A DNA stretch of 53,504 nucleotides from a virus. The position numbers and the translations under genes were made by a program. The notes beneath the pieces were generated by a model that saw nothing but the letters and a program-made list of their open reading frames with translations, was not told the origin of the DNA and searched no databases. The stretch lies in IMG/VR virus record IMGVR_UViG_3300032883_000088; one strand, given 5' to 3'. Every line of letters begins with the position of its first letter. Within the stretch, counting starts at the first letter, position 1. Below, one piece after another: positions 9,611 to 35,216 of the stretch.

Positions 9611-11494
9611 TCAATACCCGTCCTCTCCCTGGTAGTCCCACTCCGCCTCTTCGTGCATTGCGTCCTCCATCGCCTCCTGCGCCGCGGTCCACACCTCGTC
9701 CGTCAACCGCCCGCACGCTGCGACCGCGTCCAGGTTGCTGAACCCATCGGGATCGTGTAGGTTCCCCTTTCTGAGTTCCGCCACAGGGTCGTAGTCTTGG
9801 GCCACGCTAATGGCCACTGGGGGCGCGCCCTTTGCAATTTGCTGGTGCATAGCAAGTGTATCAAGAATATCGTCATGTTCCAATAACCCCATGTCGTTCG
9901 TGAATAGGCTGATCTGGTTCCAAAGTTCGCGGTAGGCCATCTCGGTCCCCCGGTCGCTCGGAATCTTTACGCGGTACTGATCGAACCGCCAACTCATCCC
10001 CTTTATCTTCTCCGCCTTGCTCAGCGAGTGGGGGAACTTTATCGGAATCACTGCCGGCATCGTGTGCGTTTCGCCCCCGCCGCACGCGGCCCCAAGTACC
10101 GGAGTCAAATCTAAGTGGAACCTCTCGAATGCCTCCATCTGCAACGGGTAGGCTTCGATCCCGATAACGTACACCTGCCATTTGACTGCCATCTCCCCAA
10201 TTATTTTTACAACCTCCGACCTTTGGGCCTTGCCTAACCAGGCATCCAGGGAATACAATGTGTTAGGATGGTCGGACCCTGATTCGAGGCCTAGAACATG
10301 AACCGCGCTAAAGTCCGAAAGTTCATTGACGGTTGGCGCATAGTCAACCGTGATAAACCGATACATCCCTCGTACTACGTCAGCAAACGGACGGAGCAAC
10401 TTACGCAATTTTGGGGCTACGGATGTACTGCCGTCCACGTTCGTAGTTGTCTCAAGCGATGTTACCTGGTGGGTAACGATCTTCGCATTCGATGACAGGG
10501 GCTTTGTGACCGCGGCCTCGTCCCGGTCCTCCAGAAAGTAGGTAGTCAGTTGCGGGTGCATTCGCAAAAGAACCTCATCCTCGGTGGACGGCTTATTGAG
10601 GCATTGCGCCGAGAAAGCGGAGGCCCCAAGCCTCTTTTTCTCGGATTCTATCCACTCTGGCCCCATCGCGGCCCAGTTAAGGTCGTGGACATTCATCAGC
10701 GTGCGATGGAAGAACTCCTTCACCCGCGGGTCCTCGGTGGAGTATAACCAGTAGATGAACATTTGCCGCGAGTACAACGTCCCGATCACGCGCATCGGAA
10801 CTATAGACCCCGGACTCCGCGCCATCGGAAGTAACCCGTTGAAGAAGAAGCTATGAAACCCCTGCCTTTCATCGGCCGGATTAACCACCTGGTCTTTACT
10901 TTTTTCAACGTCGTCAAGGACGATCAAGCCCGACGGCCGTGTTCCGAGGCTCGCACCTTTGATCGGTTTCGCAGCCAACTTGCAGCCAGTGGTTGTCTCC
11001 AATACCGAACCCCGGTTCCACGTACCAGACCCTTTTTTGGGCTTCAAGCGGCCAAAATCATCAATGATGCGTGCGTTGTTTTCAATCTGCCCCGCAACTC
11101 GTCCTAGCCGATCAGTACAAAACTCCCTAGTCGCAAGGAAGAGAGCGCATTGCCAATTCCTCCGTGAAACAAGGTTACGGAGAATGTCCTCCAGATTGAT
11201 TGTGGTCTTACACGTCCCACGCGGGCAGGCTGTGATAAGCCGAGGATATGAATACCAGTCGCGCACCCAACCGGCATGTGCCGGCGGAGATTCAACGAAA
11301 CCATCGGCGTACCATCCACTTTCCGGCGGCGTCAGGTAGTAATTTCGGAAATACTCCCACGACGTTACCTCCAGGTCCGCGTCCCCGCCCAGGCTTACGG
11401 CATTGACGCGGGCCATCCGCTGGCCACTCAGGTCCAATTCGTAATAGTCCGCGGGAAGCGGAAAGATCGGGGAGTCACGAAATACGACGGGCAC
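9611..11494 (-). CDS. terL: Terminase large subunit
   Basis: 627 aa; Walker A-like CPRGTCKT, Walker B LIVLDDVE, C-terminal nuclease-sized half; GTG start with GGAGG 5 nt upstream. Confidence 0.85.
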   Translation of the reverse strand: MPVVFRDSPIFPLPADYYELDLSGQRMARVNAVSLGGDADLEVTSWEYFRNYYLTPPESGWYADGFVESPPAHAGWVRDWYSYPRLITACPRGTCKTTINLEDILRNLVSRRNWQCALFLATREFCTDRLGRVAGQIENNARIIDDFGRLKPKKGSGTWNRGSVLETTTGCKLAAKPIKGASLGTRPSGLIVLDDVEKSKDQVVNPADERQGFHSFFFNGLLPMARSPGSIVPMRVIGTLYSRQMFIYWLYSTEDPRVKEFFHRTLMNVHDLNWAAMGPEWIESEKKRLGASAFSAQCLNKPSTEDEVLLRMHPQLTTYFLEDRDEAAVTKPLSSNAKIVTHQVTSLETTTNVDGSTSVAPKLRKLLRPFADVVRGMYRFITVDYAPTVNELSDFSAVHVLGLESGSDHPNTLYSLDAWLGKAQRSEVVKIIGEMAVKWQVYVIGIEAYPLQMEAFERFHLDLTPVLGAACGGGETHTMPAVIPIKFPHSLSKAEKIKGMSWRFDQYRVKIPSDRGTEMAYRELWNQISLFTNDMGLLEHDDILDTLAMHQQIAKGAPPVAISVAQDYDPVAELRKGNLHDPDGFSNLDAVAACGRLTDEVWTAAQEAMEDAMHEEAEWDYQGEDGY

Positions 11495-17595: not shown

Positions 17596-18072
17596 TTACG
17601 CTTCGTTTTCATTGCACACCTTCTCCAAGCGCAGGAAGTACCGCCCACGCACTCGGTCTGTCCGCACAATCCGCAGACCCAGCCGCTGCGCTACCGCAAT
17701 CGACCGCGCATTCTGTGGTGCGATCCACGCAGAGATCACGTCCGCGCCCAGTTCCGTTTCCGCGATCCGCATCGCTATTCCCGCCCACGCGCGCCCGTAG
17801 CCCCATCCGCGGTATTCCGGCTGCACGATCTCCCGGCACACCCACACATTCTTTCCCCTCTCCGCGCGGGACGCTTGGAGTTCGCAGTACCCAGACACCC
17901 CAGTAACGCCCGAAAACACGATCGCCCGCGTGCGGTGCGCCGCCCACGAGACAACCTGCTCGGCTGTCAAGGGAAACTTGGCCACGGGGTCCAGCAGGCT
18001 GAGTTCGGCCGGCGTGCGGACCCAGCTTGCGATGGTCGCAGCGTCGTCAGGTTGGAAACGGCGGTAGGTCAT
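17596..18072 (-). CDS. GNAT-family N-acetyltransferase (158 aa)
   Basis: QPEYRGWGYGRAW acetyl-CoA-binding motif, GNAT-sized; ATG 18072 coincides with +1 of promoter 18079..18107. Confidence 0.8.
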   Translation of the reverse strand: MTYRRFQPDDAATIASWVRTPAELSLLDPVAKFPLTAEQVVSWAAHRTRAIVFSGVTGVSGYCELQASRAERGKNVWVCREIVQPEYRGWGYGRAWAGIAMRIAETELGADVISAWIAPQNARSIAVAQRLGLRIVRTDRVRGRYFLRLEKVCNENEA

Positions 18073-18078
18073 ACCCCC

Positions 18079-18107
18079 AGCATACCACATTCCGAGTGCA
18101 CTGTCAA
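18079..18107 (-). promoter_or_regulatory. Sigma70-type promoter TTGACA-17 bp-(TGg)TATGCT; ATG 18072 is 6 nt after the -10 (leaderless GNAT mRNA)
   Basis: Minus strand ggcTTGACAgtgcactcggaatgtggTATGCTgggggtATG. Confidence 0.6.
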
Positions 18108-18324
18108 GCCGGCCGAGAAGGGATTCCGCGTGAAGTACTAGTGCGCGTATTGAAGTTGCGAGAGGAGCAAGGGGTAGTAAATGCTATTTAACATTCTAAA
18201 GCACGCGCGGAAGGTGGGGGCGGGGTTGGGAACAACGCGAGGGGCTATTGCTCTTCTTCGGTCCGATAACTGGGGCCGATGGGGGGTCCGCTAATCTCGC
18301 CCTGCGCACGCTTGAATATTGCGT

Positions 18325-18352
18325 ATTATACGAACGTTAGCTAACATGCGAA
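18325..18352 (-). promoter_or_regulatory. Promoter candidate TTCGCA-16 bp-TATAAT
   Basis: Minus strand TTCGCAtgttagctaacgttcgTATAAT in the AT-richer core of the 18091..18596 gap. Confidence 0.35.
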
Positions 18353-18420
18353 CACTATGCGATCTGTGCGCGCGCGACACTATCGTACTTTGCGCGCCCC
18401 GGGCGGCACAGATGTCCGAT

Positions 18421-18439
18421 AAAAATTAGGCTAGCCTAA
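18421..18439 (-). terminator. Second intrinsic-terminator-like hairpin: 14-bp perfect palindrome ttaggctagcctaa followed by T5 on the minus strand
   Basis: Palindrome 18426..18439; A5 at 18421..18425 on the plus strand. Confidence 0.45.
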
Positions 18440-18440
18440 C

Positions 18441-18470
18441 AAAAAAGGCAGGGACCGCTAAGTCCCTACC
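18441..18470 (-). terminator. Rho-independent terminator ending the leftward early operon: GGUAGGGAC-UUAGCG-GUCCCUGCC-UUUUUU
   Basis: 9-bp stem (one U-G wobble, only on the minus strand), 6-nt loop, T6 tract; lies 127 nt downstream of the stop of 18597..18854. Confidence 0.7.
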
Positions 18471-18490
18471 TACGTAAGTCCCTACCTACG
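18459..18490. repeat. Tandem direct repeat 2 x 16 bp (taagtccctacctacg) plus partial third copy; duplicates the 5' arm of the terminator
   Basis: 18459..18474 = 18475..18490 exactly. Confidence 0.9.
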
Positions 18491-18596
18491 TAAGCCCCCA
18501 CTTATCGAACCCTAGATCGTCTTGAACCCCATCCCATTGCACCGACCCCTCTTGCCGCGTTCGGCTCCGCTTAGAGTAGCACGGACCTAGATCGCG

Positions 18597-21222: not shown

Positions 21223-21567
21223 CGCTTCCCCCTTTCCATCTATCAGACCTCCCACCGCACGCCCGGTACGGAAGCAGCCGTATGGTAGGCCAACCCGCTT
21301 TCGCCGTAGCTTGTTCTAGAATTACTACGGCAATAGAATGGTTCGCTGTTACCGGACGCACGGTGGGAGGTCCGAGAACGGTTGCCTGTGCAACCCCCTA
21401 CAATCTAGCGGGTATATTCTCGGACGCCCAAAGGGGGAATAGCCGTCGGCATTTTTACGCCTATGTTATCGACTCTTTCGCACGGTTGGCGATTCTTGGA
21501 AACTTCCCATCCGTGTCTCCGTTTTTCCCCACTACGTACGGGGTTGTCGGTCCCACCGCCTCCCCGC
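21223..21567 (-). ncRNA. Structured untranslated RNA region (long 5' leader or stand-alone ncRNA) downstream of promoter 21574..21602
   Basis: No convincing ORF; own promoter; 23-bp helix and several local hairpins (see findings). Confidence 0.4.
21246..21372 (-). other. 23-bp RNA helix (arms 21350..21372 and 21246..21268) closing an 81-nt insert
   Basis: 20 Watson-Crick pairs plus 3 pairs that are G-U on the minus-strand RNA but C-A on the plus strand. Confidence 0.6.
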
Positions 21568-21573
21568 ACCACA

Positions 21574-21602
21574 AGCATACCACACGCAGCCCGCGTTGTC
21601 AA
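21574..21602 (-). promoter_or_regulatory. Sigma70-type promoter TTGACA-17 bp-(TGg)TATGCT overlapping the stop codon of 21599..21802
   Basis: Minus strand tTTGACAacgcgggctgcgtgtggTATGCT. Confidence 0.55.
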
Positions 21603-21802
21603 ACTAAATCTCCGTAAATTCCCTCCCATCCGCAATCGTCGTCCTGACAATGTGCGGAATCATAGTCCGCCGGTTGAAAATCCCCAATCGGCTCCCAGCC
21701 TAAGTCGCCGACAATTCCAATCTGAGTTTGTTTCGCGGGAGTAAACGTGCATAGCGAATCCACGTTGACCGACCCGCGACATTCTGGACACTTAGTTCCC
21801 AT
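21599..21802 (-). CDS. Zinc-ribbon protein (67 aa)
   Basis: CPEC ... ; AGGGGG 9 nt upstream of the ATG; promoter 21828..21856. Confidence 0.5.
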   Translation of the reverse strand: MGTKCPECRGSVNVDSLCTFTPAKQTQIGIVGDLGWEPIGDFQPADYDSAHCQDDDCGWEGIYGDLV

Positions 21803-21827
21803 CGTTCATTACCCCCTAACTACCCCT

Positions 21828-21856
21828 AGTCTACGCTGTGGATTCCCGGTTGTCAA
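21828..21856 (-). promoter_or_regulatory. Sigma70-type promoter TTGACA-17 bp-TAGACT
   Basis: Minus strand cgcTTGACAaccgggaatccacagcgTAGACTagg. Confidence 0.55.
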
Positions 21857-21883
21857 GCGGTCGGAGAGGATTTTTTTTGTGCG

Positions 21884-21913
21884 TTGACCGACCCCCACTA
21901 CGCGGCATATAAT
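21884..21913 (+). promoter_or_regulatory. Plus-strand (antisense-oriented) promoter TTGACC-18 bp-TATAAT, back to back with 21828..21856
   Basis: Plus strand gcgTTGACCgacccccactacgcggcaTATAATtgc; T8 tract 21871..21878 between the two -35 boxes. Confidence 0.45.
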
Positions 21914-21958
21914 TGCCGACCGTAGGGGGCGGCTTGATCGGACTAGACCTGTTCGCAG

Positions 21959-21992
21959 GTTATAGGACTATCGCCGCCCCGCGTTATAGGAC
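21959..21992. repeat. Two 10-bp direct repeats gttataggac (21959..21968, 21983..21992); minus strand GTCCTATAAC
   Basis: Exact copies 24 bp apart; related to the CCTATAAT -10 boxes at 5571, 9338, 26321 and 46186. Confidence 0.8.
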
Positions 21993-22045
21993 GACCCCCG
22001 CCCCATCCCGCTCCGCCTTTTGTGCAATTTAACATTCCCCCTCTT

Positions 22046-22063
22046 CTCGCCTTGCGGCGACCT
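22046..22063 (-). other. Conserved hairpin motif copy: (minus strand) AGGTCGCC-GCAA-GGCGAG
   Basis: 18-mer ctcgccttgcggcgacct identical to 25304..25321; 5-bp stem, GCAA tetraloop on the minus strand. Confidence 0.7.
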
Positions 22064-22106
22064 GCCTGTTGTTCATCATCCCGCGAAGCGGGCATAGGCA
22101 AAGGTC

Positions 22107-22146
22107 GGCCCCCCGGCCCACGGAGGAAGCCGCGAACCGGGGGGCC
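22107..22146. other. GC-rich stem-loop (10-bp stem ggccccccgg/ccggggggcc, 20-nt loop) 20 nt downstream of the stop at 22167
   Basis: Perfect inverted repeat; no U tract on either strand, so terminator function is uncertain. Confidence 0.5.
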
Positions 22147-22166
22147 TTGGAGGGGGAAGGAAGCTC

Positions 22167-22952
22167 TTAGTCCGCGGCCCGTCGCAGGTCGTCGGCGTAC
22201 TGTCGCTGATAGTGGATCGCGTACTGCCCCGGCGGAAACGTCACGTCCTGGTGTTCCGGGTGCGTCATCGTCCAGGGGTTATCCGCAACCACGATCGGCC
22301 CATCAAGCACGCCGGCGTTCGGCGGCGTAAGGACTCGTACCTCCGAGGTCAAAACGAGGTGTCGAGCACCGATTCCCGACCCGACCGCGATCTGGATGTG
22401 GCTCTCTCCGCCCCCGACCGTGTGCATTGGTCCCATCGCCTTGAATGCGGCATCGGACAACAGGACTACGCCCACGTCGCCTTGCCATAGGATGTCTGTA
22501 TCCGGCGTCATTGCCCCTGCCTTCCGCGGCTCGCGTCCGGGCTTGTCGTCCGCCTTGAACTCATTCGCCCGCATCCGCATGGCGGCGTACACGTTGCCGG
22601 CACCGTTCGCGTTCTCAAACGCAGCATCCGTCTCCTCCCGCGTCATCGGAGGTTCGGCAGACCGGGTAGGGCGACGTTTGGTCCCCGTCAACAATGGCAT
22701 CTCGGTTTTCAATTCGCTCATCTTTTGGTCCTTTCCCGCGGTATCGCGGCTGGGTCTTTTTTCCCGCTGCGTAGCGGGGTAAACAAAATCTCTCCAAATC
22801 CTGTGTGCTCCGGGTCGAAAGGAAATAGAGGTAGCCCATCTTCCCCATGGAATACCGGTGCAAGGATATGTACCGAAACACGCCTCTGCTATCTTTTTCC
22901 TTACCCCAACAACACGTAATCTACAATCCGTATTCAAACTCATCCTTACCAT
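22167..22952 (-). CDS. Hypothetical protein (261 aa; 184 aa if ATG 22721 is the true start)
   Basis: GGAGGGAGG just upstream of ATG 22952, with promoter 22969..22996. But the first 77 codons are AT-richer, rich in AGA/AGG/ATA/TTA and contain two hairpins. ATG 22721 has AAGGA upstream. Confidence 0.5.
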   Translation of the reverse strand: MVRMSLNTDCRLRVVGVRKKIAEACFGTYPCTGIPWGRWATSISFRPGAHRIWRDFVYPATQREKRPSRDTAGKDQKMSELKTEMPLLTGTKRRPTRSAEPPMTREETDAAFENANGAGNVYAAMRMRANEFKADDKPGREPRKAGAMTPDTDILWQGDVGVVLLSDAAFKAMGPMHTVGGGESHIQIAVGSGIGARHLVLTSEVRVLTPPNAGVLDGPIVVADNPWTMTHPEHQDVTFPPGQYAIHYQRQYADDLRRAAD

Positions 22953-24689: not shown

Positions 24690-24733
24690 ATCTCCCCCAT
24701 TGTCGCCTGGCGGCGAACTGCAACAGGGGAGAT
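24690..24733 (-). other. Nested stem-loop: outer 8-bp stem (atctcccc/ggggagat) enclosing a variant of the conserved hairpin (tcgcc-tggc-ggcga, 24703..24716)
   Basis: Inverted repeats read directly from the sequence in the 116-bp gap 24639..24754. Confidence 0.55.
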
Positions 24734-24754: not shown

Positions 24755-25297
24755 TTAGTTGGTCGGCAATAGGGTTAGGAACACGTCCCACTCGGTCGTA
24801 CCCGTGGTCGTGCTTCCACTTACGGCAAGCTGAGACCGCAATGTGCAGCCCGTAGTCCACACCGCGTACGCCGGCACGATGATGCGAACCACGTCTGTAT
24901 CCTGCGTATCGCCATCCGTGTCCACGCTCGCCACAACGCTGTTGAACGACTCGCTCGCGGCCCCGTCGCCGAGTTCGAGTTTGAAGTCGTGGTCCGGTGC
25001 GCCCCCCGTACGTAGAGACCGCATTACGGTCTTGATCTGGACAATCCGGTACTTCTGACTCAGCACCGGCTTGCTGCCGGCCACGTTCACGATCGCCGCG
25101 GCGCTGTCGTACGCCTGATCCGCGACCGCCTTATGCTTGAGGACTACCATAATCGGCGAACCGTAGATTTTGTCCTCGTCGGCGCTGTACGCGACCGTGC
25201 TCTTCGTGCTCACCGCATCTTGCACCATGACTCCCAATGTGGCCTCCTGGTCTACATGAACTGCGATGTGTGCTACGCTTTCATAGTCTCTTGCCAT
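24755..25297 (-). CDS. Hypothetical acidic, beta-rich protein (180 aa), probably highly expressed
   Basis: ATG preceded by GAGGAAAGT and by the conserved GCAA hairpin; no domain recognised. Confidence 0.6.
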   Translation of the reverse strand: MARDYESVAHIAVHVDQEATLGVMVQDAVSTKSTVAYSADEDKIYGSPIMVVLKHKAVADQAYDSAAAIVNVAGSKPVLSQKYRIVQIKTVMRSLRTGGAPDHDFKLELGDGAASESFNSVVASVDTDGDTQDTDVVRIIVPAYAVWTTGCTLRSQLAVSGSTTTGTTEWDVFLTLLPTN

Positions 25298-25303
25298 ACT
25301 TTC

Positions 25304-25339
25304 CTCGCCTTGCGGCGACCTCCTTTGCGGCTTCGCCGC
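25304..25339 (-). other. Two consecutive hairpins in the 49-bp gap: conserved AGGTCGCC-GCAA-GGCGAG (25304..25321) and GCGGC-GAA-GCCGC (25327..25339)
   Basis: Stems read directly; the first ends 7 nt before ATG 25297. Confidence 0.65.
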
Positions 25340-26285: not shown

Positions 26286-26320
26286 CCTTTACGTGGGTTC
26301 GGACTTCAATTCGCCAACCT

Positions 26321-26349
26321 ATTATAGGTCCGTTTGTGGATAGAATCAA
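26321..26349 (-). promoter_or_regulatory. Leftward promoter TTGATT-17 bp-TATAAT (GACCTATAAT)
   Basis: Minus strand gcTTGATTctatccacaaacggaccTATAATagg; back to back with 26355..26382. Confidence 0.6.
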
Positions 26350-26354
26350 GCCCC

Positions 26355-26382
26355 TTGACTTCCCTCCGCGTTTGGGTATAGT
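26355..26382 (+). promoter_or_regulatory. Rightward promoter TTGACT-16 bp-TATAGT, then 6 nt, then ATG 26389 (leaderless polymerase mRNA)
   Basis: Plus strand ccTTGACTtccctccgcgtttgggTATAGTctgttgATG. Confidence 0.6.
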
Positions 26383-26388
26383 CTGTTG

Positions 26389-28926
26389 ATGGGGGTTGAA
26401 CATGCAACAGAACCTTTGGCTCCCGGATACTCTACGCGGTTGGTGCCGATGGTACGATACGGAAGCGGGAAGCACGATACGGCCTTGCTCGTGGTAGGAG
26501 AAGCCCCCGGAAAAGACGAGGACGAAAAGGGGGAACCATTCGTAGGTAAATCGGGAAAGCTATTACGGGGAGCGTATCTCGATCATTGGGAGTTTGGAAA
26601 CTATGCGTCCTTGTATCTTACCAATTCGGTACGATGCCGTCCCCCGGACAATCGCACTCCTCGGCCATCGGAGATTAAGGCCCATCATCAATTGTTGGAG
26701 TTGGATATCCGTGGGTTGGCAGAGAAGTATTCGAGTATTGTTGTGCTTGCCGTAGGAGCAACAGCGTGCAAAGCGTTTGGGATGAAATCCTTATCCGCTG
26801 CGTTCAAGCAACAAGGTGGGGAAGTCCTCTTCGGGAATGTCATAGTCCGCTTTTTCGCCACGTGGCACCCTGCTTTCGTCTTACGCGATCCGTCAGTTGG
26901 AACGTCCTTAGAGTCGCATTTGGCCTGTCTGATGCGGCATTTGCGTGGTTCAACGGAGCAACCCGTCGTTACCTCAAAAAGCAATTGGCTCGTCGCGCCC
27001 GCGCACGTGCCGCACAAAGGAGTAGTGTGTCTTGACATCGAAACCTATGGGTGCATTTCTGGGGTGGAGCAAAGCCAGTTTCACCCTGCGAAAGCAGTTT
27101 ATTGGGACGGCGTCCGGCCGGCTAACGCAATTATATCGTGCGCCCTCTCCTGGGATGGCGGCTCCGCTTTCTACAATCTGGGACTACAACATCATCGGCG
27201 CGCGTTGTGCGCGGTCTTGAGGCAGGTACAGCATGAACAATGTGTTCTCCTACTCCAAAATGCAACATTTGATCTCACGTTCCTACGGGCATTCCTCCCT
27301 GCTTGCCGTCCATATCTGGAGCTACCACTTCGCCTGGCGGACCTTATGGTATCCAGCTACCTTGTTGATGAGGCTCGCCCAGAGCGGTCACTCAAAGCCC
27401 TCGCCCCCCTTCTGATGGGACAGCAAGGATTGTACAAAGACGAATGGCGGTCGTTGAACTTTACCGGCCCGGACGACCCGGAACTTGCACGTTACAACAT
27501 AGCAGATACGGAGCGTACGTATGGATGCAATAAGATTTGTCGTGAGTCCTACCCCAGCATGTACGGAATTGAAACGGGCAAAGGATCGGAGTATTCAGAT
27601 CGTTGGTATTCCGATCTCCTGCACCTCGTCACATGGATGTCTGAGGCCGGTGTACTTTTGGATGTACCGGCACTCACGCTTTTGGACCGACACCTTTCCG
27701 TTCGTAAGTCTCGCATCGAACGATTGGCGAAGTCCACCCTCGATCTAACGCTTGAGGGCAAAGGCTCAGACAAATCCAAACGCGGCGCGGTCTCCGCTGC
27801 GGTTAAAAGCATTCCGTGCGCCGATGACGGAGAACTCGTGAGCGATCGTATCAAACTCACCAAAACGGGAAAGATGCCTTACGATGAAGAAACTCGTAAT
27901 CTGCTCGTACCATTACTCCGAACGAATGGCGATCGTCGCACTCTTCGCGCGTTACATGTTATTGGGTTGCACCAAAATGTGGCTAAGGTATTGTCCACCT
28001 ACACTGGCCCGATGCTTCGCGGTCGCAAGCGCGGGGCGACCTGGGACAACTCGCCCCGCGTGATTGACGGCCGGGTGTACCCAACGTGGTATCCGGTCCC
28101 CCGCGAGTTCGGGGCGGGTGAATCAGGCGGCACCAAGCAAGGTCGCCTCTCCGCCAAGTCCCCATCCGTCCCCACATTCCCGCCAGCGCTCAAGAAACTC
28201 ATCCAGGTGGACGCTTGGGTCGATTACTCCGGTATCGAACTCCGTACAGCAGCATTGATGAGCGGGGACCCGGTGATGATGTCCGAGCTTTCCGGCCCGG
28301 ACGGCGACCTGCACGCGCGGACGGCCCGGCTGATCTTCGGCGACGATATCGTGAACCACCCCCTGTTCCGCGCGGTATACCGCCAAGCTGGAAAAAAAAC
28401 CAACTTTCTCATGCTCTACTTAGGTGGCGCGGAGAAACTGCGGCACACGCTTTTAACCAAGGTCGGACTTGACTATCCGATCGAGAAGTGCTATGCTGCC
28501 ATAGATGGATTCTGGTCAACGTACCACGTACTGCGCGCGTTTATCGACTCCGCGGTCGCCTCCGTGCGCAAAAAGGGCTTCTATGAACTTCCGCTCACCG
28601 GCCAATCGCGCCTTTTCGCTCGCGCGAACCCACCGATCAATGAGGTTGCATCCTTTCTCTTCCAGCCTATTGCCGCTAACATTACTCTTTCTGCCCAGTA
28701 TCATCTTTGGGCAACCGCGAAACGAGAGAACGTGGCGATGACCTGCCCCGTGAACATCTACGACGCCATCGGCATCGTGCTCCACCCCCAAGAACGCCGT
28801 CGGTACAGTATGAAGCGCGCATCGAAGCTCATGGTGGACATCCTTCCGAACCCCCCGTATTACCGCGATCTGTGCGCCCACCTCGGCCGCACGCTACCAT
28901 TGGCTTACGAGGTAACGAATGGATAG
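26389..28926 (+). CDS. Family-A DNA polymerase with N-terminal UDG-family-4-like domain and 3'-5' exonuclease domain (845 aa)
   Basis: UDG-like: GEAPGKDEDEKGEPFVGKSGKLL ... HPAFVLRDPS. Exo: VCLDIETYG, QNATFDLTFL. Pol motif A VDYSGIELR, motif B RQAGKKTNFLMLYLGG, motif C region VNIYDAI. Confidence 0.9.
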   Translation: MGVEHATEPLAPGYSTRLVPMVRYGSGKHDTALLVVGEAPGKDEDEKGEPFVGKSGKLLRGAYLDHWEFGNYASLYLTNSVRCRPPDNRTPRPSEIKAHHQLLELDIRGLAEKYSSIVVLAVGATACKAFGMKSLSAAFKQQGGEVLFGNVIVRFFATWHPAFVLRDPSVGTSLESHLACLMRHLRGSTEQPVVTSKSNWLVAPAHVPHKGVVCLDIETYGCISGVEQSQFHPAKAVYWDGVRPANAIISCALSWDGGSAFYNLGLQHHRRALCAVLRQVQHEQCVLLLQNATFDLTFLRAFLPACRPYLELPLRLADLMVSSYLVDEARPERSLKALAPLLMGQQGLYKDEWRSLNFTGPDDPELARYNIADTERTYGCNKICRESYPSMYGIETGKGSEYSDRWYSDLLHLVTWMSEAGVLLDVPALTLLDRHLSVRKSRIERLAKSTLDLTLEGKGSDKSKRGAVSAAVKSIPCADDGELVSDRIKLTKTGKMPYDEETRNLLVPLLRTNGDRRTLRALHVIGLHQNVAKVLSTYTGPMLRGRKRGATWDNSPRVIDGRVYPTWYPVPREFGAGESGGTKQGRLSAKSPSVPTFPPALKKLIQVDAWVDYSGIELRTAALMSGDPVMMSELSGPDGDLHARTARLIFGDDIVNHPLFRAVYRQAGKKTNFLMLYLGGAEKLRHTLLTKVGLDYPIEKCYAAIDGFWSTYHVLRAFIDSAVASVRKKGFYELPLTGQSRLFARANPPINEVASFLFQPIAANITLSAQYHLWATAKRENVAMTCPVNIYDAIGIVLHPQERRRYSMKRASKLMVDILPNPPYYRDLCAHLGRTLPLAYEVTNG
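28469..28497 (+). promoter_or_regulatory. Promoter-like element inside the polymerase gene: TTGACT-17 bp-(TGc)TATGCT
   Basis: Plus strand acTTGACTatccgatcgagaagtgcTATGCTgccatagATG. Confidence 0.35.
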
Positions 28927-30097
28927 CAATGTACAACGTACGCTGGATATGCTCCGTGTACACCTACGAAACCCGGTCGGTGATTTACGGAAAAAGGTCG
29001 CCGCTGAACTTGGATTGTCTCTTCATGCGGCTCGGCAAACCCTTGCTATGGCTCGTGTTCTCGACTCATCTCCAGTTGTAGTACCTATAGACCCCAAGGA
29101 CCCGTTGTTCCGCTCGCGGTTGGTACGCGAGTTGCGTCGGCCGATCACGCCTGCCAAGCTCGCCGCCAAGTTGGGCGTTCTCGTTTCTGATGTGGGGAAC
29201 ACACTTGAGGACCTTGAAGGTAGTGGCTACATCATACTTCGCGTTGGTAATAGCGTATCGATTGGGACTTCCGTACAACAGAGTTGCGACCACGTAGTAC
29301 AGGCAAATCACTTTATCGGAAAGCCCCTATCATTCGGCGTGGTCGCGGATATGCACCTATGTTCTACCTCCGAGCGCCTAGATGTACTTGAAGCCGCATA
29401 CGACGAGTTCGCGCACCGCAAGATCAACACGGTCCTCTGCCCCGGTAACTACGTAGACGGCGAGTGTCGGTACAACGCACACGAGCTCAAGGCCCATGGG
29501 GTCGCGGACCAGTGCTATTACGCACTAGACCATTGGCCCCAGCGGAAGGGAATCAAGACCTACTATGTCGATGGTGACGATCACGAGGGTTGGTTCCAGC
29601 AACGCGAGGGCATCGAGTTTGGTCGATTTTTACATCTTGAAGCTCTGGCCCGCGGCCGCAAGGACCTCACGTATCTGGGTTACATGGAGGCAGACTTTGA
29701 ACTCAAGGCTCCCGGCGGGTCATCTGTTGTTAAACTGATCCACGCCGGCGGAGGTTCCAGTTATGCGTATAGTTACTCTTCCCAGAAGTTGGCTGAATCT
29801 TTTCAGGGGGGAGAGAAGCCGGCTGTGGCTATTATCGGACACTACCACAAGCAGGAATACTGTTTTCCGCGGAACGTGCATTGCATTCAGTCAGGCTGCT
29901 GTCAAGATCAGACTCGGTTTATGAGGAAGCGTAAACTCGCCGCGCACGTCGGGTTCGCGGTCATTACCTTGCAACAGGACACCAAGGGCAGCATCTCGCG
30001 GTTCGGGGTCGAGTTCTTCCCCTTCTGGGACCGTGGATATTACCTATCACGTGATGGACAAGCCCTCGCCACGCGGCTACAATCCCGTGATAGGTAA
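28919..30097 (+). CDS. Calcineurin-like metallophosphoesterase (Mre11/SbcD-like) with an N-terminal winged-helix domain (392 aa)
   Basis: VVADMHLCS, GNYVDGE, GDDHEGW, IHAGGG, IGHYH; N-terminus PITPAKLAAKLGVLVSDVGNTLEDLEGSGYIIL. Confidence 0.75.
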   Translation: MDSNVQRTLDMLRVHLRNPVGDLRKKVAAELGLSLHAARQTLAMARVLDSSPVVVPIDPKDPLFRSRLVRELRRPITPAKLAAKLGVLVSDVGNTLEDLEGSGYIILRVGNSVSIGTSVQQSCDHVVQANHFIGKPLSFGVVADMHLCSTSERLDVLEAAYDEFAHRKINTVLCPGNYVDGECRYNAHELKAHGVADQCYYALDHWPQRKGIKTYYVDGDDHEGWFQQREGIEFGRFLHLEALARGRKDLTYLGYMEADFELKAPGGSSVVKLIHAGGGSSYAYSYSSQKLAESFQGGEKPAVAIIGHYHKQEYCFPRNVHCIQSGCCQDQTRFMRKRKLAAHVGFAVITLQQDTKGSISRFGVEFFPFWDRGYYLSRDGQALATRLQSRDR

Positions 30098-30100
30098 TGT

Positions 30101-30301
30101 ATGCCGATGAGGTGGTTAGAGGATGACCTTGATGACGCGGACGGCACCCAGCCGTACCATGAGGACGGTACGTACATCTGCCGCAACTGTGCGGCGGAAC
30201 TTCCCGGCCGCGGTTCCCTCTGCCGCGCTTGCAAAGCCCGGAAGGAGTGGCGAATCAGGAGAGAGGACGCACAGGAGAAAGAGTATGGTACCCGAGAATG
30301 A
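30101..30301 (+). CDS. Zinc-ribbon protein (66 aa)
   Basis: CRNC ... CRAC. Confidence 0.55.
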   Translation: MPMRWLEDDLDDADGTQPYHEDGTYICRNCAAELPGRGSLCRACKARKEWRIRREDAQEKEYGTRE

Positions 30302-30419
30302 CGTGGTTCCTCTATGGGAACTCTGCCTATTTGCTATTGTAATGCTGGCCATGATCGGCACCTACCTACGTAGTCTCGTAAGGGACAAAGGGGAGGATAA
30401 GCATGAGCAAGGGGTCTAA
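30285..30419 (+). CDS. Possible small membrane protein (44 aa)
   Basis: AGGAGA 6 nt upstream of ATG 30285; LWELCLFAIVMLAMIGTYL helix; below the ORF-track size cut-off as an independent gene. Confidence 0.3.
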   Translation: MVPENDVVPLWELCLFAIVMLAMIGTYLRSLVRDKGEDKHEQGV

Positions 30420-30876
30420 CCGCCGGCCGTGCCAATTGACGCGGGCGGAAGAAGAGCAGCGATGGATTGACGCCTTCGGCCCCCGCCCCATCCCAAACGT
30501 GATGTCCGATGAGGACCGAATGGAGTTGGTTATCGGCCCCCTGGGAGTAGAGGAAATCCAGGAACGAATGATCCATGACCGAGATCGAGAAGCTGGTGGA
30601 AACGTATCTGCGGACAAGCATGACGGCGGAGGTCTTCATGCGGAAGGCCAAGACCCTGAGATGCAAGGCCCGTTTTGGGTTGGCCCCGGCTACCGCGGAG
30701 AGTATATCTGCCCTCACGGATGCCGCCACGGAAACCACATCCACGGCTGCGACGGCTGCTGCTCGCGGGATGACTTCCCCGGACGATCCGCGATGAGGAT
30801 TACCAATGTCCCAAACGACATGAAAACAGGGGATGAACCTCAATATCCTGTCGAGGACTTTTGGAGTTCGATGTAA
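30403..30876 (+). CDS. Cys/His-rich protein, second copy of the FWVGPGYRGEY-CPHG-HGN-IHGC module (157 aa)
   Basis: GGGGAGGA 5 nt upstream; FWVGPGYRGEYICPHGCRHGNHIHGCDGCC. Confidence 0.55.
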   Translation: MSKGSNRRPCQLTRAEEEQRWIDAFGPRPIPNVMSDEDRMELVIGPLGVEEIQERMIHDRDREAGGNVSADKHDGGGLHAEGQDPEMQGPFWVGPGYRGEYICPHGCRHGNHIHGCDGCCSRDDFPGRSAMRITNVPNDMKTGDEPQYPVEDFWSSM

Positions 30877-31064
30877 TGAATAGGCAGAACAAGTTAGTAA
30901 CACGAAGTCGGTCCAACGCCCTAACGCGCAAGATGCAACTCCGCGATGCGCAGTCCCAGAACAACGCTAAACTCGCGGACGAGGTCGCCAAGCGTCTCGA
31001 ACCCTTTATTAGGGCCGAGATCGCACGCCAACTCGCCGAACTTGATAGCCTGGACGGAAGTTAA
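30876..31064 (+). CDS. Small basic helical protein (62 aa)
   Basis: TAATG overlap with the upstream stop. Confidence 0.45.
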   Translation: MNRQNKLVTRSRSNALTRKMQLRDAQSQNNAKLADEVAKRLEPFIRAEIARQLAELDSLDGS

Positions 31065-31065
31065 G

Positions 31066-31611
31066 ATGTATAACCTCACGGTCATCCAGGACTCGCGGGA
31101 ACAAACGCCACTCGTGTTCCCGGACCACATCAAAGTCCATTTGCGGCGGTCCAAGACTCCGACACTCATAAAAATCACGACGGAGGTTGACACTCTTCCC
31201 GCGGGTGACTATACTATTAAAGGATTCGACAATGTGGTGTTGGTCGAAACCAAACGGTCAGCCCGTGAGTTGCACGACAACCTGCTGACCGCGGACTTTC
31301 GGAGAACTTCCCATGCGTTTGAGCGTTTGTCCTTGGCAAAGCACCCCCTCTTGGTATGCGAGTTTGGACAGAGCGAGCTACTTAACGAGACACGGGGCAT
31401 GGCGGGCGGCGGTCAAGCCGTTGCAGACGCATTGGCGTACATTGTTGCGGAATACGGCCTCTCGGTTTGGTTTGCCGGGCCACGTTCCGGGGCATACGCA
31501 CGGCGGCGGACGGCGGAATGCATTCTCCGCCTAATGATCGCCTGCGTGGAACTTGAATACCCAAACTTCCTGCATGGAGTAAAGGACGGCGCTGAGGAGG
31601 AGAGAACATGA
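31066..31611 (+). CDS. ERCC4 (XPF/Mus81)-type nuclease, candidate junction resolvase (181 aa)
   Basis: VIQDSREQTP ... AGDYTI ... VLVETKRSARELHDNL (D-x-RE ... GDY ... E-x-K pattern). Confidence 0.65.
   Translation: MYNLTVIQDSREQTPLVFPDHIKVHLRRSKTPTLIKITTEVDTLPAGDYTIKGFDNVVLVETKRSARELHDNLLTADFRRTSHAFERLSLAKHPLLVCEFGQSELLNETRGMAGGGQAVADALAYIVAEYGLSVWFAGPRSGAYARRRTAECILRLMIACVELEYPNFLHGVKDGAEEERT
31547..31580. repeat. 34-bp direct repeat, copy 1 (32/34 identical to 31820..31853)
   Basis: tggaacttgaatacccaaacttcctgcatggagt versus tggaacttgaatatccaaacttcctacatggagt. Confidence 0.9.
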
Positions 31612-31808
31612 GTGGGATATTCCACCACAGATTGGGAATCATCATAGCCTACTGCCTTTGCCCGGCCTCCGAGCTTCCCGTTGCGGTCAGGAAGGCGGAG
31701 ACCGTCGGCGAGTTCTGTGTCGCCTTGGGCCTACCGGCGGTGGAGCCGGTCGATCTCGCCGCGTTGAAGGAGCGCTTCGCGCGCCTCGGCGACGCGGCGA
31801 ATGGGTAA
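31608..31808 (+). CDS. Hypothetical protein (66 aa) bracketed by the 34-bp repeats
   Basis: ATGA overlap with the nuclease stop. Confidence 0.45.
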   Translation: MSGIFHHRLGIIIAYCLCPASELPVAVRKAETVGEFCVALGLPAVEPVDLAALKERFARLGDAANG

Positions 31809-31819
31809 GTGGACACGCA

Positions 31820-31853
31820 TGGAACTTGAATATCCAAACTTCCTACATGGAGT
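31820..31853. repeat. 34-bp direct repeat, copy 2
   Basis: See 31547..31580; ends in the ATG (31847) of the next gene. Confidence 0.9.
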
Positions 31854-32506
31854 TTCAGATGATGAGTTGCGAGCAGGACCCCAACCTACCGAGGTGGACC
31901 GAAGTAAAAGACAGCGGCGAGCGCGAGCGGAAGGACACAAATCCGAAGGATCGAGTAGCAACAAGTCGCCTGGACCTAAGTTTGTTCCCCGACACTGCTG
32001 TTGCGTACGGCGCACTCGCCATGTCAGAGGGAGATGCCAAGTACGGCGGATATAATTATCGCATCGCAGGAGTACGCGCGTCTGTCTACTACGCCGCGTG
32101 TAGGCGTCATCTTGGACGATGGTTTAATGGGCAATGGGTAGATAAGAAAACAGGGATTCCGAATCTTGCCAGTGCGTTGGCCTGTATTGCTATCCTGATC
32201 GACGCGGTAGAGTGCAACAAGTTGAATGACGACCGGCCACCTCCTGTTGATTTTGACGCCTTATTGGCCAAAACAGAATCCCTGATACGGAAACTCTACA
32301 ACATGTTCCCTAACGGCCCCCCACGTTATACTGCCTTAGTCTCGCTGGGGGATAAGCCGCAGTCAACCGCGAAAGGCACATTGCATCGTCGCGGTTTCTC
32401 CTCAACCCGCCGTGCCTTCGGAGTTGGGAACCCTATTGGAGGACGGCGGACGTATTGGGGCCGTCGTGTGGGCGATCTCAAACTCCATTGTCCCGGAGCG
32501 ATATAG
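31847..32506 (+). CDS. Protein with a dATP/dGTP-diphosphohydrolase N-terminal-like domain (family recalled as DUF5664) (219 aa)
   Basis: KDRVATSRLDLSLFPDTAVAYGALAMSEGDAKYGGYNYR ... YYAACRRHLGRWFNGQWVDKKTGIPNLASALACIAILID; the Arg-rich C-terminal 50 aa look less protein-like. Confidence 0.55.
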   Translation: MEFQMMSCEQDPNLPRWTEVKDSGERERKDTNPKDRVATSRLDLSLFPDTAVAYGALAMSEGDAKYGGYNYRIAGVRASVYYAACRRHLGRWFNGQWVDKKTGIPNLASALACIAILIDAVECNKLNDDRPPPVDFDALLAKTESLIRKLYNMFPNGPPRYTALVSLGDKPQSTAKGTLHRRGFSSTRRAFGVGNPIGGRRTYWGRRVGDLKLHCPGAI

Positions 32507-33501
32507 TGGACCTAAGTAATATCACCGAGGTCCGCAAGGTTGCGTTGCGTTCAACTGGGATGAGTGACCATGAAAAGTGTCCGCGGTATTTCTTATTTCG
32601 ACACCGGGCCGGGTTGGTCCCCAAGGGTGCGACCGCCCCCGCCCTTCAACGTGGTAACACATTCCACCGCATTGTGGCGGACCTTCTCCGTGGTAAATCA
32701 ATGCCCGCCGCCGAGTCTACCGCTTTCTCGGTAATGAACTCTGCCATCATGGACCTTGTTACCCAGGTCGGCCCAGCCGGTTATCTCCCCAGCGGCCAGA
32801 CGCTAGAGGAGGCAACCAAGGCAATCGAGGCCAACACGCGCGTTGCAATCGCCATGTCCCGTGCCTACGCCCGTTTCTTTCAGGTAGGCCCCGGCACGAT
32901 TTCCGGCCTCCGCGTCCTTGACAACGCAATCGAAGTTGACATATCATCCGACGACGGTGCGGTTGGTACTTTGGACGCCATCGCCGCCGACGATGCCCAC
33001 GGGGAAACGTGGGTTATAGACCACAAAACCTGTGGATGGGACTTGGTGCAATATGCACGCACTCTACCTTTGTCAGCCCAGTCTCTCTTGTATCCGCCGT
33101 TGGCCCGAAGCGTGGCTTCCGTTGCAGGCATCTGTTATAACATTATCAAGACTCCTACGATCCGTTGTTGCAAGACTGACGGCTTCGACTTGACCCGCTA
33201 TGCCGCGCGCGTAGAGAAATGGTACGAGGAGAATGAGAATGAAACCATGCTCCGTACTTTCATTCGCCCCTCGCCCGAATTGGTCGGCCTTTCTCAGCCT
33301 CGCCTTGACAATGCACGACGGGCGTGTATATCATTACCCGTGCTGTCCAACTTTCCAGCAACTGGTGGATCGGCTTGCCAGAGCTACAATACACTTTGCC
33401 CGTATATGGGACTCTGTACCCGTGACACTGCCGGTTGGCCCGGAGAACTGAAACGCTATGACCGCGATTGGAGAGACGACAATGACCCAGCAAGTGATTG
33501 A
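32506..33501 (+). CDS. PD-(D/E)XK nuclease of the Cas4/RecB type with Fe-S cysteines (about 331 aa)
   Basis: N-terminal EKCPRYF; GTLDAIAADD; WVIDHKT (D-x-K); SAQSLLYPPL (QxxxY); C-terminal CQSYNTLCPYMGLC. GTG 32506 start is tentative. Confidence 0.8.
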   Translation: MDLSNITEVRKVALRSTGMSDHEKCPRYFLFRHRAGLVPKGATAPALQRGNTFHRIVADLLRGKSMPAAESTAFSVMNSAIMDLVTQVGPAGYLPSGQTLEEATKAIEANTRVAIAMSRAYARFFQVGPGTISGLRVLDNAIEVDISSDDGAVGTLDAIAADDAHGETWVIDHKTCGWDLVQYARTLPLSAQSLLYPPLARSVASVAGICYNIIKTPTIRCCKTDGFDLTRYAARVEKWYEENENETMLRTFIRPSPELVGLSQPRLDNARRACISLPVLSNFPATGGSACQSYNTLCPYMGLCTRDTAGWPGELKRYDRDWRDDNDPASD

Positions 33502-34384
33502 GAATGTAGTAACGCACAAGCCGGTCAAGCTCCCGGCCGCACTCTCGAACGTGATGGAGGTCTCCCAGGGCTTCGAGTCCCCGGACCCCGACTCCCTTCG
33601 CATCGTAGTCATCGGCCGCGGCGGCTCCGGCAAGACCAGCTTCGTCGCTTCCAACCCGCAGTGTCTTCTGTTCGACCTGGAACGCCAACCCCGCACACTC
33701 ATCGACCCCCAGGCGACCTTCGTACGGATTAAGACTGCATCCACCAACGCCGCCGATGACTTCCGCAAGGGCATCGACGCCTTTCTCGCTGCGTACCGCA
33801 CCGACTCTACCCTCCGCGAGTCCATCAAGACTGTCGGCATCGACTCCTTCGACGCCTGGGTCGAGATGTTCCTTCGGGACCTCTGCACCAAGTTCGATCT
33901 TGAGGACGCCGGCGACTACAAGGGCGGGCACGGTAAGGGTTACTTCAAGGTCCGCGATGAGGTGTTCGACATTTTGGACCGCATCCACCGCGCGGGCCTC
34001 GGATGGGTCTTGGTCGCCCATATCTCCCTCAAGGAAGTCGGCGATGTTCAGGTTCCCGCGCTCGGCGTGAGTAAGTCCTTCCGCGACGTGTTAGTCCGCT
34101 CCCGTGATCTTATGTTTAAGGTCGACTGTGTTCCCGGCATGGTTCCACAAAAGACCAAGACCGGCCTGACCATCAACATCCCCAGCAAGAACCCCAAGGA
34201 CCGCCGTTATGTTCTCATTACAGATATGTCTACCACAGCCGAGGATTTCGACTCGCCCAAGTGTAATGTACCTGTTGAGTCAGGATTGGTTATCCCTGCC
34301 CGCGGGGGTTGGTCGGCTTTTCGGGTGGCTTATGCAAAGGCAGTAGACATCCGCCGCAAGGAACTCAGTACCCGCGTCGATTAA
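33482..34384 (+). CDS. AAA_24 / Sak4-like recombination ATPase (300 aa)
   Basis: RIVVIGRGGSGKTSF (Walker A), CLLFDLE, GWVLVAH; GGAGA 7 nt upstream of ATG 33482. Confidence 0.75.
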   Translation: MTQQVIENVVTHKPVKLPAALSNVMEVSQGFESPDPDSLRIVVIGRGGSGKTSFVASNPQCLLFDLERQPRTLIDPQATFVRIKTASTNAADDFRKGIDAFLAAYRTDSTLRESIKTVGIDSFDAWVEMFLRDLCTKFDLEDAGDYKGGHGKGYFKVRDEVFDILDRIHRAGLGWVLVAHISLKEVGDVQVPALGVSKSFRDVLVRSRDLMFKVDCVPGMVPQKTKTGLTINIPSKNPKDRRYVLITDMSTTAEDFDSPKCNVPVESGLVIPARGGWSAFRVAYAKAVDIRRKELSTRVD

Positions 34385-34452
34385 CTCTGCGCGGATGTGA
34401 TTGAACCGGCCGAATGAGAGCCGGAAGGTGTACACTTTCAGGAGAGAGTAGT

Positions 34453-34917
34453 ATGGGAAAAGACTTTGCAAGTGTGTTGGCGGGTTTCTGTGACGCCGCC
34501 AAGAAGACGACCATCCAGGAACGTGATCGCTCCGGCCCCCCGAACGGCGAGTATCACCTCCAGATGGTCAAGAAACTCAGTGAGGCCAAGACCAACCAGT
34601 ACGGCGCGTACGTCCAGACCAACCTCGGCTTCAAGATTCTGGACCCCAACGAGCAGCAGGACCGCGAGTTTACGGTCGTGTGGCTCATCAACACCACCAA
34701 AGAGGGCGACCTGAACTTTGGTGGGCAGAACTTCGTGCAGTTGGCCGGCATCCTCGCGGGTGAACCAATCGCGGACAACAACCCCGTGACCGCCGACTTG
34801 GTCATCACGGCCGCGTGCGACAAGGGCGACGTAATTCGCGCCCGCGTGTTCACCCGCAAGAACGGCTACACCGGCATCGAGGCGTTGTCCTTGGAAACCC
34901 CCGTGGACGTTGCCTAA
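34453..34917 (+). CDS. DUF669-like protein (putative ssDNA-binding partner of the AAA_24 ATPase) (154 aa)
   Basis: AGGAGA 7 nt upstream; PPNGEYHLQMVK ... LGFKILDP pattern, plus the conserved nuclease-ATPase-DUF669 gene order. Confidence 0.55.
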   Translation: MGKDFASVLAGFCDAAKKTTIQERDRSGPPNGEYHLQMVKKLSEAKTNQYGAYVQTNLGFKILDPNEQQDREFTVVWLINTTKEGDLNFGGQNFVQLAGILAGEPIADNNPVTADLVITAACDKGDVIRARVFTRKNGYTGIEALSLETPVDVA

Positions 34918-34960
34918 CGGCAACCTGTTTTGCGGCTCCGCCGCAGTTAGGAAAATCGAA

Positions 34961-35182: not shown

Positions 35183-35216
35183 TCTTTGTACGGCGACACC
35201 TGCCGGGACTCCGTGC

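Follow-up and report, generated by a model that had tools for sequence, protein, structure and literature searches.

Why would a phage keep a promoter that points against a whole block of its own genes? The question is raised by a 364-bp gap between two small minus-strand genes (positions 21803 to 22166) in the viral genome IMGVR_UViG_3300032883_000088, which we analyzed over its full length of 53,504 nucleotides (hereafter, the window). An earlier note on this DNA had described the gap as a regulatory stretch with back-to-back promoters, twin boxes, and a stack of hairpins and had likened it to a phage genetic switch. Comparison with related phages indicates that the gap is a free-standing non-coding control module between two early transcription units and that its antisense promoter is very probably functional. 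We tentatively favor the view that this promoter acts mainly in cis against read-through from the upstream unit.

The 159-aa protein encoded immediately upstream of the gap (22167..22646, minus strand; called in the identical contig L001) has 13 homologues from metagenomic phages that are 58-80% identical to it, and its gene is the anchor that precedes the module in all relatives. Ten distinct lineages span the region 3' of this gene (the window, L011, L034, L010, L002, L035, L004, L031-33, L007, and L030), with L005/6 as a truncated eleventh. All ten share the same module in the same order: read in gene direction, i.e., on the minus strand, it comprises a terminator, a filler, a 13-nt site, a spacer, the boxes, an ACGGTCG...ATTATA block, an A-rich tract, and the sense promoter of the downstream genes in the form TTGAC(A/T)-17-TAnnCT. 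The filler varies between lineages from 0 to ~500 nt and holds small hairpins as well as extra small genes in several phages, and the 31-nt spacer between the 13-nt site and the first box (21993..22023) has exactly this length in five lineages (the window, L011, L034, L010, and L002) though their spacer sequences are unrelated. The 67-aa gene downstream of the gap in the window (21599..21802, minus strand; called in L001) and its promoter are both absent from L011, where the module abuts the homologue of another window promoter (21602-21574) as its sense promoter. The module is thus kept while flanking genes come and go, and the 67-aa gene is, by this comparison, a dispensable cassette.

The element at the heart of the question is a sigma-70-type promoter on the plus strand (TTGACC-18-TATAAT at 21884..21913, with the -35 element at 21884-21889 and the -10 element at 21908-21913), which the earlier note had correctly placed against the minus-strand gene block and across a T8 tract from a leftward promoter. 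We scored promoters as matches out of 12 to the -35 (TTGACA) and -10 (TATAAT) hexamers of the sigma-70-type consensus, spaced by 16-18 bp. The antisense promoter scores 11, and the window holds seven matches of at least 11/12 compared to 0.17 in 100 dinucleotide shuffles (14 versus 3.05 at a threshold of at least 10/12). Thirteen of these 14 are co-oriented with the local genes, and the promoter at 21884 is the sole exception.

An antisense-strand promoter of at least 9/12 occurs at the same place in 9/9 complete copies of the module and reaches at least 10/12 in seven of them. The window's score of 11 is matched by L011 (TTGACC-17-TATAAT), L010 (TTGACT-17-TATAAT), L035 (TTGACG-17-TATAAT), and L031 (TTGACA-17-TATGAT), followed by L002 (TTGATT-16-TATAAT) and L030 (TTGACT-17-TATGAT) with 10 each and by L007 (TGGACT-17-TACAAT) and L004 (a weak -35 element and TATAAT) with 9 each. 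Six lineages have TATAAT as their -10 element, two have TATGAT, and one has TACAAT, so that this element varies only at positions 3-4, the least constrained ones of sigma-70 -10 elements, while the A at position 2 and the T at position 6 are unchanged throughout. The -35 elements are not positionally homologous and still keep the spacing of 16-18 nt: in the window and L011, they belong to an insertion that precedes the A-tract; in L010, L002, L035, and L030, they are found on the far side of this tract and form a palindrome with the sense -35 element (GTCAA-N4-5-TTGAC); and in L031, the -35 element overlaps the sense promoter, with which the antisense promoter interdigitates. If the promoter is under selection, its spacing should survive rearrangements of this kind, as it does here, and it is because of this retention in nine complete copies, with non-homologous yet correctly spaced -35 elements, that we judge the antisense promoter to be very probably functional. 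By contrast, none of 18 control loci, each with a distant homologue of the 159-aa anchor gene, showed a match of at least 10/12 on either strand within 700 nt downstream. The predicted transcription start at ~21919-21920 falls into a conserved block (TGCCGACCGTAGGGGG, 21914..21929, plus strand), of which CGACCGT(A/G)nGGGG is kept in six lineages, and the first 15 nt of the predicted transcript (CGACCGTAnGGGG) are conserved in six lineages as well. A few model phages and recent transcriptomics have provided examples of antisense promoters in phage early regions, but for uncultured phages, comparative support for such promoters is rare; in the present case, conservation by itself argues strongly for a functional promoter firing against a whole gene block.

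The leftward promoter of the earlier note is found where it was described (TTGACA-17-TAGACT, minus strand, 21828..21856, with the -35 element at 21856-21851 and the -10 element at 21833-21828), and this sense promoter is conserved in the relatives. The space between the two promoters (21857-21883) holds only an A8/T8 tract at 21871..21878 that separates the two -35 elements. All lineages have an A-rich tract (AAAATC), which may serve as an UP element.

What the antisense polymerase would cross first is a set of three boxes at +15 to +73 of its predicted start (21934-21992), outside the inter-promoter space. The exact repeats of gttataggac seen earlier at 21959 and 21983 are part of a 22-nt repeat with 86% identity and are joined by a third, degenerate copy; when the gap was shuffled 2000 times, 43 of the shuffled sequences contained a close direct repeat of at least 10 nt. 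On the minus strand, box 1 (GTCCTATAAC, 21983..21992; extended form CGTCCNRTAACGCG) is the best conserved across lineages, box 2 (GTCCTATAAC, 21959..21968) follows 24 bp away, and box 3 (GTCCGATCAA, or TTGATCGGAC on the plus strand, 21934..21943) lies another 25 bp further and is conserved as GTCCGATCA in L011, L034, and L002 and inverted in L010. Each lineage has two or three boxes of the consensus GTCCNRTAAC; in the window they are direct repeats 24-25 bp apart, while distant relatives have spacings of 15 to 44 bp and L004 a flipped box orientation. No dyad symmetry in the boxes is consistent across lineages. The boxes are conserved as nucleotides whatever the reading frame, falling into different frames in different lineages, and this pattern is easier to reconcile with a sequence-specific protein that reads the boxes in double-stranded DNA than with a motif that acts in RNA. 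The -10 element of FliA promoters, GCCGATAA, partially resembles the boxes, a comparison that we do not count as a test.

Similar boxes recur elsewhere, and the window as a whole has 15 matches to GTCCKATAAC at up to one mismatch compared to 4.9 expected. Full-length copies in the early block occur in both orientations, at 16102 (plus), 18261 (plus), 18414 (one mismatch), and as an inverted pair at 21348/21370; most of them are in non-coding gaps (18261 and 21348/21370), and the one at 16102 is near a promoter at 16095. The inverted pair, GTTCTCGGAC-N12-GTCCGGTAAC (21348-21379), belongs to the ~340-nt leader that runs from the promoter at 21602-21574 to a 61-aa zinc-ribbon gene starting at ~21222, at a place where 31/31 nt agree with L002, and the same leader (21256-21598) has a further box, TCGATAAC, at 21465-21472. 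To us, this pair looks like a second operator-like site for the same putative factor. The full-length boxes left of ~21360 are on the plus strand (16102, 18261, 18414, and 21370) and those to the right on the minus strand (21348, 21959, and 21983), i.e., all point toward ~21360; the sites are few, and the L004 module breaks the pattern.

Beyond the boxes, the antisense polymerase would reach the 13-nt site (AATGTTAAATTGC, minus strand, 22024..22036), which had gone unmentioned in the earlier note and is the most constrained element of the gap. Its consensus, AATGT(T/G)A(A/G)AT(T/A/G)(G/T)C, is found in all ten lineages 3' of the 159-aa gene and is invariant except for positions 6, 8, 11, and 12. 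On the antisense strand, it reads GCAATTTAACATT, with GCAAUUUAACAUU as the invariant segment of the predicted antisense RNA. We also compared it with known consensus sequences without counting any of these comparisons as tests: the boxA of rrn operons, GCTCTTTAACAAT, is identical to GCAATTTAACATT at 10/13 positions and differs in its GCUCUU core; for the -24/-12 elements of sigma-54 promoters, the spacing is one base too long, and their GG is unconserved in L010 and in the second copy of the site; and IHF sites, the DnaA box, and CtrA sites do not fit the motifs of the gap.

The site occurs exactly twice in the window. Its second copy (AATGTTAAATAGC, also given as AAUGUUAAAUAGC; 18195-18183, minus strand) lies upstream of a gene for a GNAT acetyltransferase (17596-18090) and is found also in L002, L045-47, and L048, and in L002 both copies of the site show the same A-to-G change. 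The non-coding gap of ~500 bp around the second copy (18091-18596, minus strand) has a strong terminator (18471-18446) preceded by two tandem copies of CGTAGGTAGGGACTTA, a palindrome (GTTAGGCTAGCCTAA), the boxes TTTATCGGAC and GTTATCGGAC, and promoters at 18352 and 18107, and it is mostly conserved in relatives (L002 7214-7750, L045 338-1096, and L048 970-1455).

At the other end of the module, the hairpins that the earlier note had taken as one stack are three different things. The longest (22107..22146) is the Rho-independent terminator of the 159-aa gene; it is present as described, but its stem has 17 bp according to ViennaRNA and not 10. The terminator sits at the same place in ten lineages with a U-rich tail in gene direction (including L002, L004, L005, L010, L031, L035, L007, and L030), and its outer stem GGCCCC/GGGGCC is invariant in eight of them while the inner stems differ; L007 and L030 have a different stem. 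Its tail in the window (GACCUUUG, also given as GACCUUUGCC) is weaker than those of the relatives (GCUGUUUUUU in L004, CUUUUUUU in L030, and GCGGUUUU in L002), and because it has fewer than five U, the window terminator went unlisted in a consensus terminator scan. Just before the stem lies a C/T-rich block (CTTCCTTCCCCCTCCAAGG, 22140..22163, minus strand) that is 24/24 identical to L004 and also found in L005, L010, and L002. The second hairpin, CCCGC-TTC-GCGGG on the minus strand (CCCGC-GAA-GCGGG on the plus strand, 22080..22092), exists in the window but has no counterpart at the same position of the relatives read, which have other small GC hairpins elsewhere in their filler. The third, TCGCC-GCAA-GGCGA (22047..22060, minus strand), is indeed present and followed by a purine-rich stretch. 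It recurs exactly at 25305-25318, directly before the Shine-Dalgarno (SD) sequence and ATG of gene 24755-25297, and with one mismatch at 24703-24716, amounting at up to two mismatches to five copies in the window compared to 0.84 expected, and it also precedes the 13-nt site in L004, L005/6, and L035; we read it as a recurrent inter-cistronic RNA hairpin rather than an element of a switch. The purine run before the 13-nt site has a 9-nt perfect complement in the C/T-rich block (TTCCCCCTC / GAGGGGGAA, 22035-22043 versus 22150-22158), and the two could engage in long-range pairing in a read-through sense RNA.

Taken together, the explanation that we favor, if only tentatively, is that of an inter-operon control module whose antisense promoter drives transcription over putative protein-binding boxes and, through a mainly cis-acting effect, counters read-through past the weak terminator of the upstream unit. 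Host RNA polymerase would start at ~21919-21920 on the plus strand and cross the three boxes and the 13-nt site. The resulting antisense RNA would be non-coding, since a non-coding transcript is the natural product of a side without a conserved open reading frame (ORF), and would measure ~115 nt with an end close to the 13-nt site, but at least ~230 nt if transcription continued to the terminator hairpin or past it. The boxes may be the sites of a phage or host sequence-specific DNA-binding protein that, when bound, would block or modulate antisense transcription and upstream read-through. Antisense transcription itself might then act mainly in cis on transcripts that escape the weak terminator, through collision or base pairing, with the outcome that the two units would be insulated and that the 3' end of the upstream message would possibly be damped, like cII by the oop RNA of phage lambda.

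Several observations weigh against this scenario. A consensus scan detected no plus-direction intrinsic terminator between 21920 and 22170 (the sequence past the long hairpin, i.e., beyond 22146, reads UUGGAGGGGG in plus direction), which makes the 3' end and size of the antisense RNA guesses; the earlier proposal of a non-coding RNA is backed by the lack of any conserved ORF, but its size of ~230 nt holds only as an upper bound. The boxes at other sites show no consistent position relative to promoters, and no DNA-binding protein was found for them, given that the early block has no detectable helix-turn-helix (HTH) protein and that the model of the neighboring 159-aa protein is uninformative. 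This AlphaFold2 model is a beta-sandwich with a predicted local distance difference test score of 80, and the protein had no sequence match in the PDB and no Foldseek match below E = 0.1, leaving these searches without evidence either way on its candidacy as the box-binding protein. The 13-nt site, the most constrained element, is left unexplained, and with variable cassettes on both sides of the module, it is not obvious that it would act purely in cis on any one neighbor.

Among known systems, the module resembles lambda oop (transcribed from promoter pO) and P22 sar in having a host-type promoter in an intergenic stretch of an early operon that points against this operon, with a non-coding product just 3' of a gene that it could oppose. 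Oop and sar are ~70-77 nt long, have a clear intrinsic terminator, and overlap the 3' end or the ribosome-binding site of their target. Unlike them, the module lacks a terminator in antisense direction, would require more than ~247 nt to reach the upstream coding region, and has repeated boxes and a 13-nt site without oop or sar counterpart in its transcribed region. Likewise, it shares with the boundaries of "morons" in phage early regions that it is bounded by a terminator and promoters where small genes come and go between relatives, but unlike at these boundaries, the module itself is conserved and has the 13-nt site, boxes, and antisense promoter beyond the terminator-promoter junction.

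Less likely than such insulation, the module would be an autonomous element of a kind new to phages, either a promoter-equipped non-coding RNA gene or a replication or countertranscript control unit. The idea arises because the module stays intact amid swapped genes, because the 13-nt site occurs exactly twice per genome, and because both L002 copies share the A-to-G change. As an RNA gene, its 13-nt 3' segment GCAAUUUAACAUU would recognize the second copy in the GNAT leader in trans, while as a control unit, its site and boxes would be read by a dedicated phage protein.

An RNA gene of this sort would give a trans-acting small RNA (sRNA) of ~115 nt, made from the promoter at 21884-21913, whose 3' GCAAUUUAACAUU would serve as seed for pairing with AAUGUUAAAUAGC (18195-18183) within the GNAT operon's long leader, and this reading strikes us as rather unlikely. 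It would account for a module with its own promoter and conserved transcribed blocks between variable cassettes, for a second copy that is sense-oriented in a transcribed leader, for the matching L002 changes, and for the GC hairpin that lies just 5' of the site on the antisense RNA of several relatives (GGGGCCGGCCCC in L010 and CGGCCGGCCG in L002). However, complementarity does not extend past the motif, the duplex energy with the GNAT leader is no better than with shuffled targets, and position 11 of the second copy varies freely (T, A, or G) without matching changes in the first. The box inversion in L004 rather argues that the boxes are read as DNA, and the predicted RNA has neither a U-tail terminator nor a conserved fold. 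For six lineages, RNAalifold gave only a weak consensus of -9.2 kcal/mol with a covariation term of +1.7 and compensatory changes in 2/17 pairs. A predicted 55-nt hairpin at 21925-21980 has a compensatory central stem (CCUG/CAGG in the window, CCCG/CGGG in L011, and CCCAC/GUGGG in L034) and was rejected as a conserved fold after it proved not to be kept in L010, L002, L035, L004, L031, L007, and L030. No convincingly conserved RNA fold was found, nor did the gap give any hit in a tRNA and transfer-messenger RNA scan or any Rfam match at gathering thresholds (chance-level ones only, at E ~1).

A different role for the 13-nt site, which we consider similarly doubtful, is that of an extended -10 promoter in sense direction (TG-T-TAAATT), so that a convergent promoter pair ~100 bp apart, with the boxes in the overlap, would act through a countertranscript or transcriptional interference. 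In the predicted antisense transcript, the order is start block, box 3, box 2, box 1, spacer, and 13-nt site, and the predicted starts at ~22019 and ~21920 would, judging from the coordinates, create an overlap of ~100 nt. The pattern TGnTAnnnT is kept in all ten first-copy sequences save for a G at -12 in L031, and in several relatives the site is followed at a distance of 3-8 nt by a GC hairpin, as a stabilizing 5' hairpin would be placed. Facing starts ~100 nt apart are also what coliphage 186 pR/pL, ColE1 RNAII/RNAI, and R1 CopA/CopT would have in common with the module if the site were a sense promoter. Unlike these systems, though, the putative sense promoter has no -35 element, in this or any other lineage, kissing-type stem-loops are not conserved, and the downstream gene is variable. 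Moreover, the T at -7 is among the most conserved positions of -10 elements, but the would-be -7 base of the second copy is T, A, or G, and the flanking AA and GC, which a -10 element would not need, are as invariant as the putative hexamer.

That the module is a phage replication origin, with the phased boxes as iterons and the promoters providing transcriptional activation or a primer, seems distinctly unlikely. Like iteron origins such as lambda ori, P1 oriR, and plasmid oriV, it combines phased direct repeats (three of them, spaced by 24-25 bp) with a nearby A/T tract and two promoters, and it is independent of neighboring genes and keeps its place within the early region, at a distance of ~4 kb to the replication module. 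Unlike in iteron origins, the repeats are short (10 bp) and few and vary in spacing (15-44 bp in distant relatives) and orientation (flipped in L004 and L010), and the module has no extended AT-rich unwinding region besides the A8 tract, no adjacent recognizable initiator gene, and no DnaA-box-like sequence. Further boxes are scattered over other gaps, and cumulative GC skew has no inflection at 22 kb.

It is very unlikely that the plus-strand promoter match is a product of chance or a by-product of other constraints. In its favor, ATTATA is the loop of a local hairpin in the window, but this hairpin is weak or absent in the relatives. Nine lineages have kept the match, with -35 elements that have moved and are still correctly spaced, and the number of 11/12 matches expected in the whole window is 0.17.

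A small protein gene missed in the gap is highly improbable, and the earlier view that no credible plus-strand ORF follows the promoter holds up, as no ORF is conserved among lineages on either strand. On the minus strand, a 30-aa ORF (22035-21943, MLNC...) is preceded by an SD-like purine run before its ATG in 7/10 lineages, and the same combination of hairpin and SD sequence precedes a real gene at 25297. This candidate was discarded since its length ranges from one codon (ATG TGA in L031) to more than 60 codons and amino-acid changes outnumber synonymous ones, with ten codons changed at the amino-acid level and two purely synonymously between the window and L034 as counted from the printed sequences. 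The plus-strand ORF that ends at the TAA in the 13-nt site has an uninterrupted frame in just three lineages, the window, L011, and L034, and is broken in the six lineages L010, L002, L035, L004, L007, and L030, and the boxes fall into differing frames.

The lambda-like lysis/lysogeny switch that the earlier note had seen in the divergent promoters and repeated boxes is hardly tenable, because such switches have (pseudo)palindromic operators that overlap the divergent promoters or separate them, whereas the boxes are repeated directly and start only past the antisense start, and because neither an integrase or excisionase nor a CI/Cro-like HTH repressor was significant among ~70 ORFs searched against Pfam and PHROGs, a search that very divergent proteins could escape and that agrees with the earlier note on this point. 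Back-to-back sigma-70 promoters and three boxes within ~200 bp are indeed reminiscent of lambda OR with PR/PRM and OR1-3, but unlike there, the boxes are non-palindromic 10-mers outside the inter-promoter space, no repressor, Cro, or integrase was found, and the flanking genes are on the same strand, both encoding small proteins to which no function is assigned.

What the module would mean depends on the reading: if it is a true sRNA gene or origin, a recurrent feature of this phage clade would be annotated, and if it is only an inter-operon insulator, it would be a tidy yet ordinary example. Its value lies in clean comparative evidence and two sharply conserved, unexplained elements, and the 13-nt site and the family of 10-bp boxes offer testable handles for a regulator in a clade without cultured relative. 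Compared with known phages, the window has no DNA match in INPHARED, its PolA is at most ~28% identical, and its large terminase has no tblastn match; the phage has no cultured relative and is probably lytic. An exact scan of IMG/VR for the twin boxes had no match, and a pattern of 13-nt site and box had seven in IMG/VR and GTDB genomes that were discarded as chance, being without tblastx similarity and giving no clue to the host. A literature search for the motifs of the gap returned unrelated primers only. Examined as Lar-like genes, the variable cassettes gave a sub-threshold match in L007 only.

Four contigs from independent assemblies end at a box or within a few bases of one, with L005, L006, and L037 ending at box 1, ~30 nt after the 13-nt site, and L001 at window position 21463, 2 nt beyond the box at 21465-21472. 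These ends suggested a genome terminus at the boxes. We disfavor this idea, as they probably reflect branching of the assembly graph where co-occurring strains diverge, which is simpler than a physical DNA end or modification, and as the window assembles as a circle. It is a complete circular phage genome of ~53.4 kb with an exact terminal overlap of 123 bp (1-123 = 53382-53504).

In this genome, the block of small genes to which the module belongs lies on the minus strand from ~26.3 kb down to ~12.5 kb, with no function assigned, and the large terminase gene (9611-11494, phrog_38) is on the same strand. Upstream of the 159-aa gene, an in-frame ORF on the minus strand (22647-22952, MVRMSLNTDCRLRVVGVRKK...) is conserved at the protein level in P0007 and P0008, so that this gene may have a 261-aa long form starting from 22952, just after a promoter at 22996-22969. 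A further back-to-back promoter pair, TTGATT-17-TATAAT leftward and TTGACT-16-TATAGT rightward, is found at 26286-26385 between the early block and the divergent replication block and forms the main divergent control region of the genome. The replication block (26386-37769, plus strand) encodes a UDG-PolA fusion, an ERCC4 nuclease, a PD-(D/E)XK nuclease, an AAA_24 protein, and a protein with a dATP/dGTP diphosphohydrolase domain. The last of these has the N-terminal domain PF18909 (E = 1e-16) in gene 31658-32506 (plus strand), near the UDG-PolA fusion at 26386-28926 (plus strand), and enzymes of the dATP/dGTP diphosphohydrolase type go along with the use of non-canonical bases in some phages.

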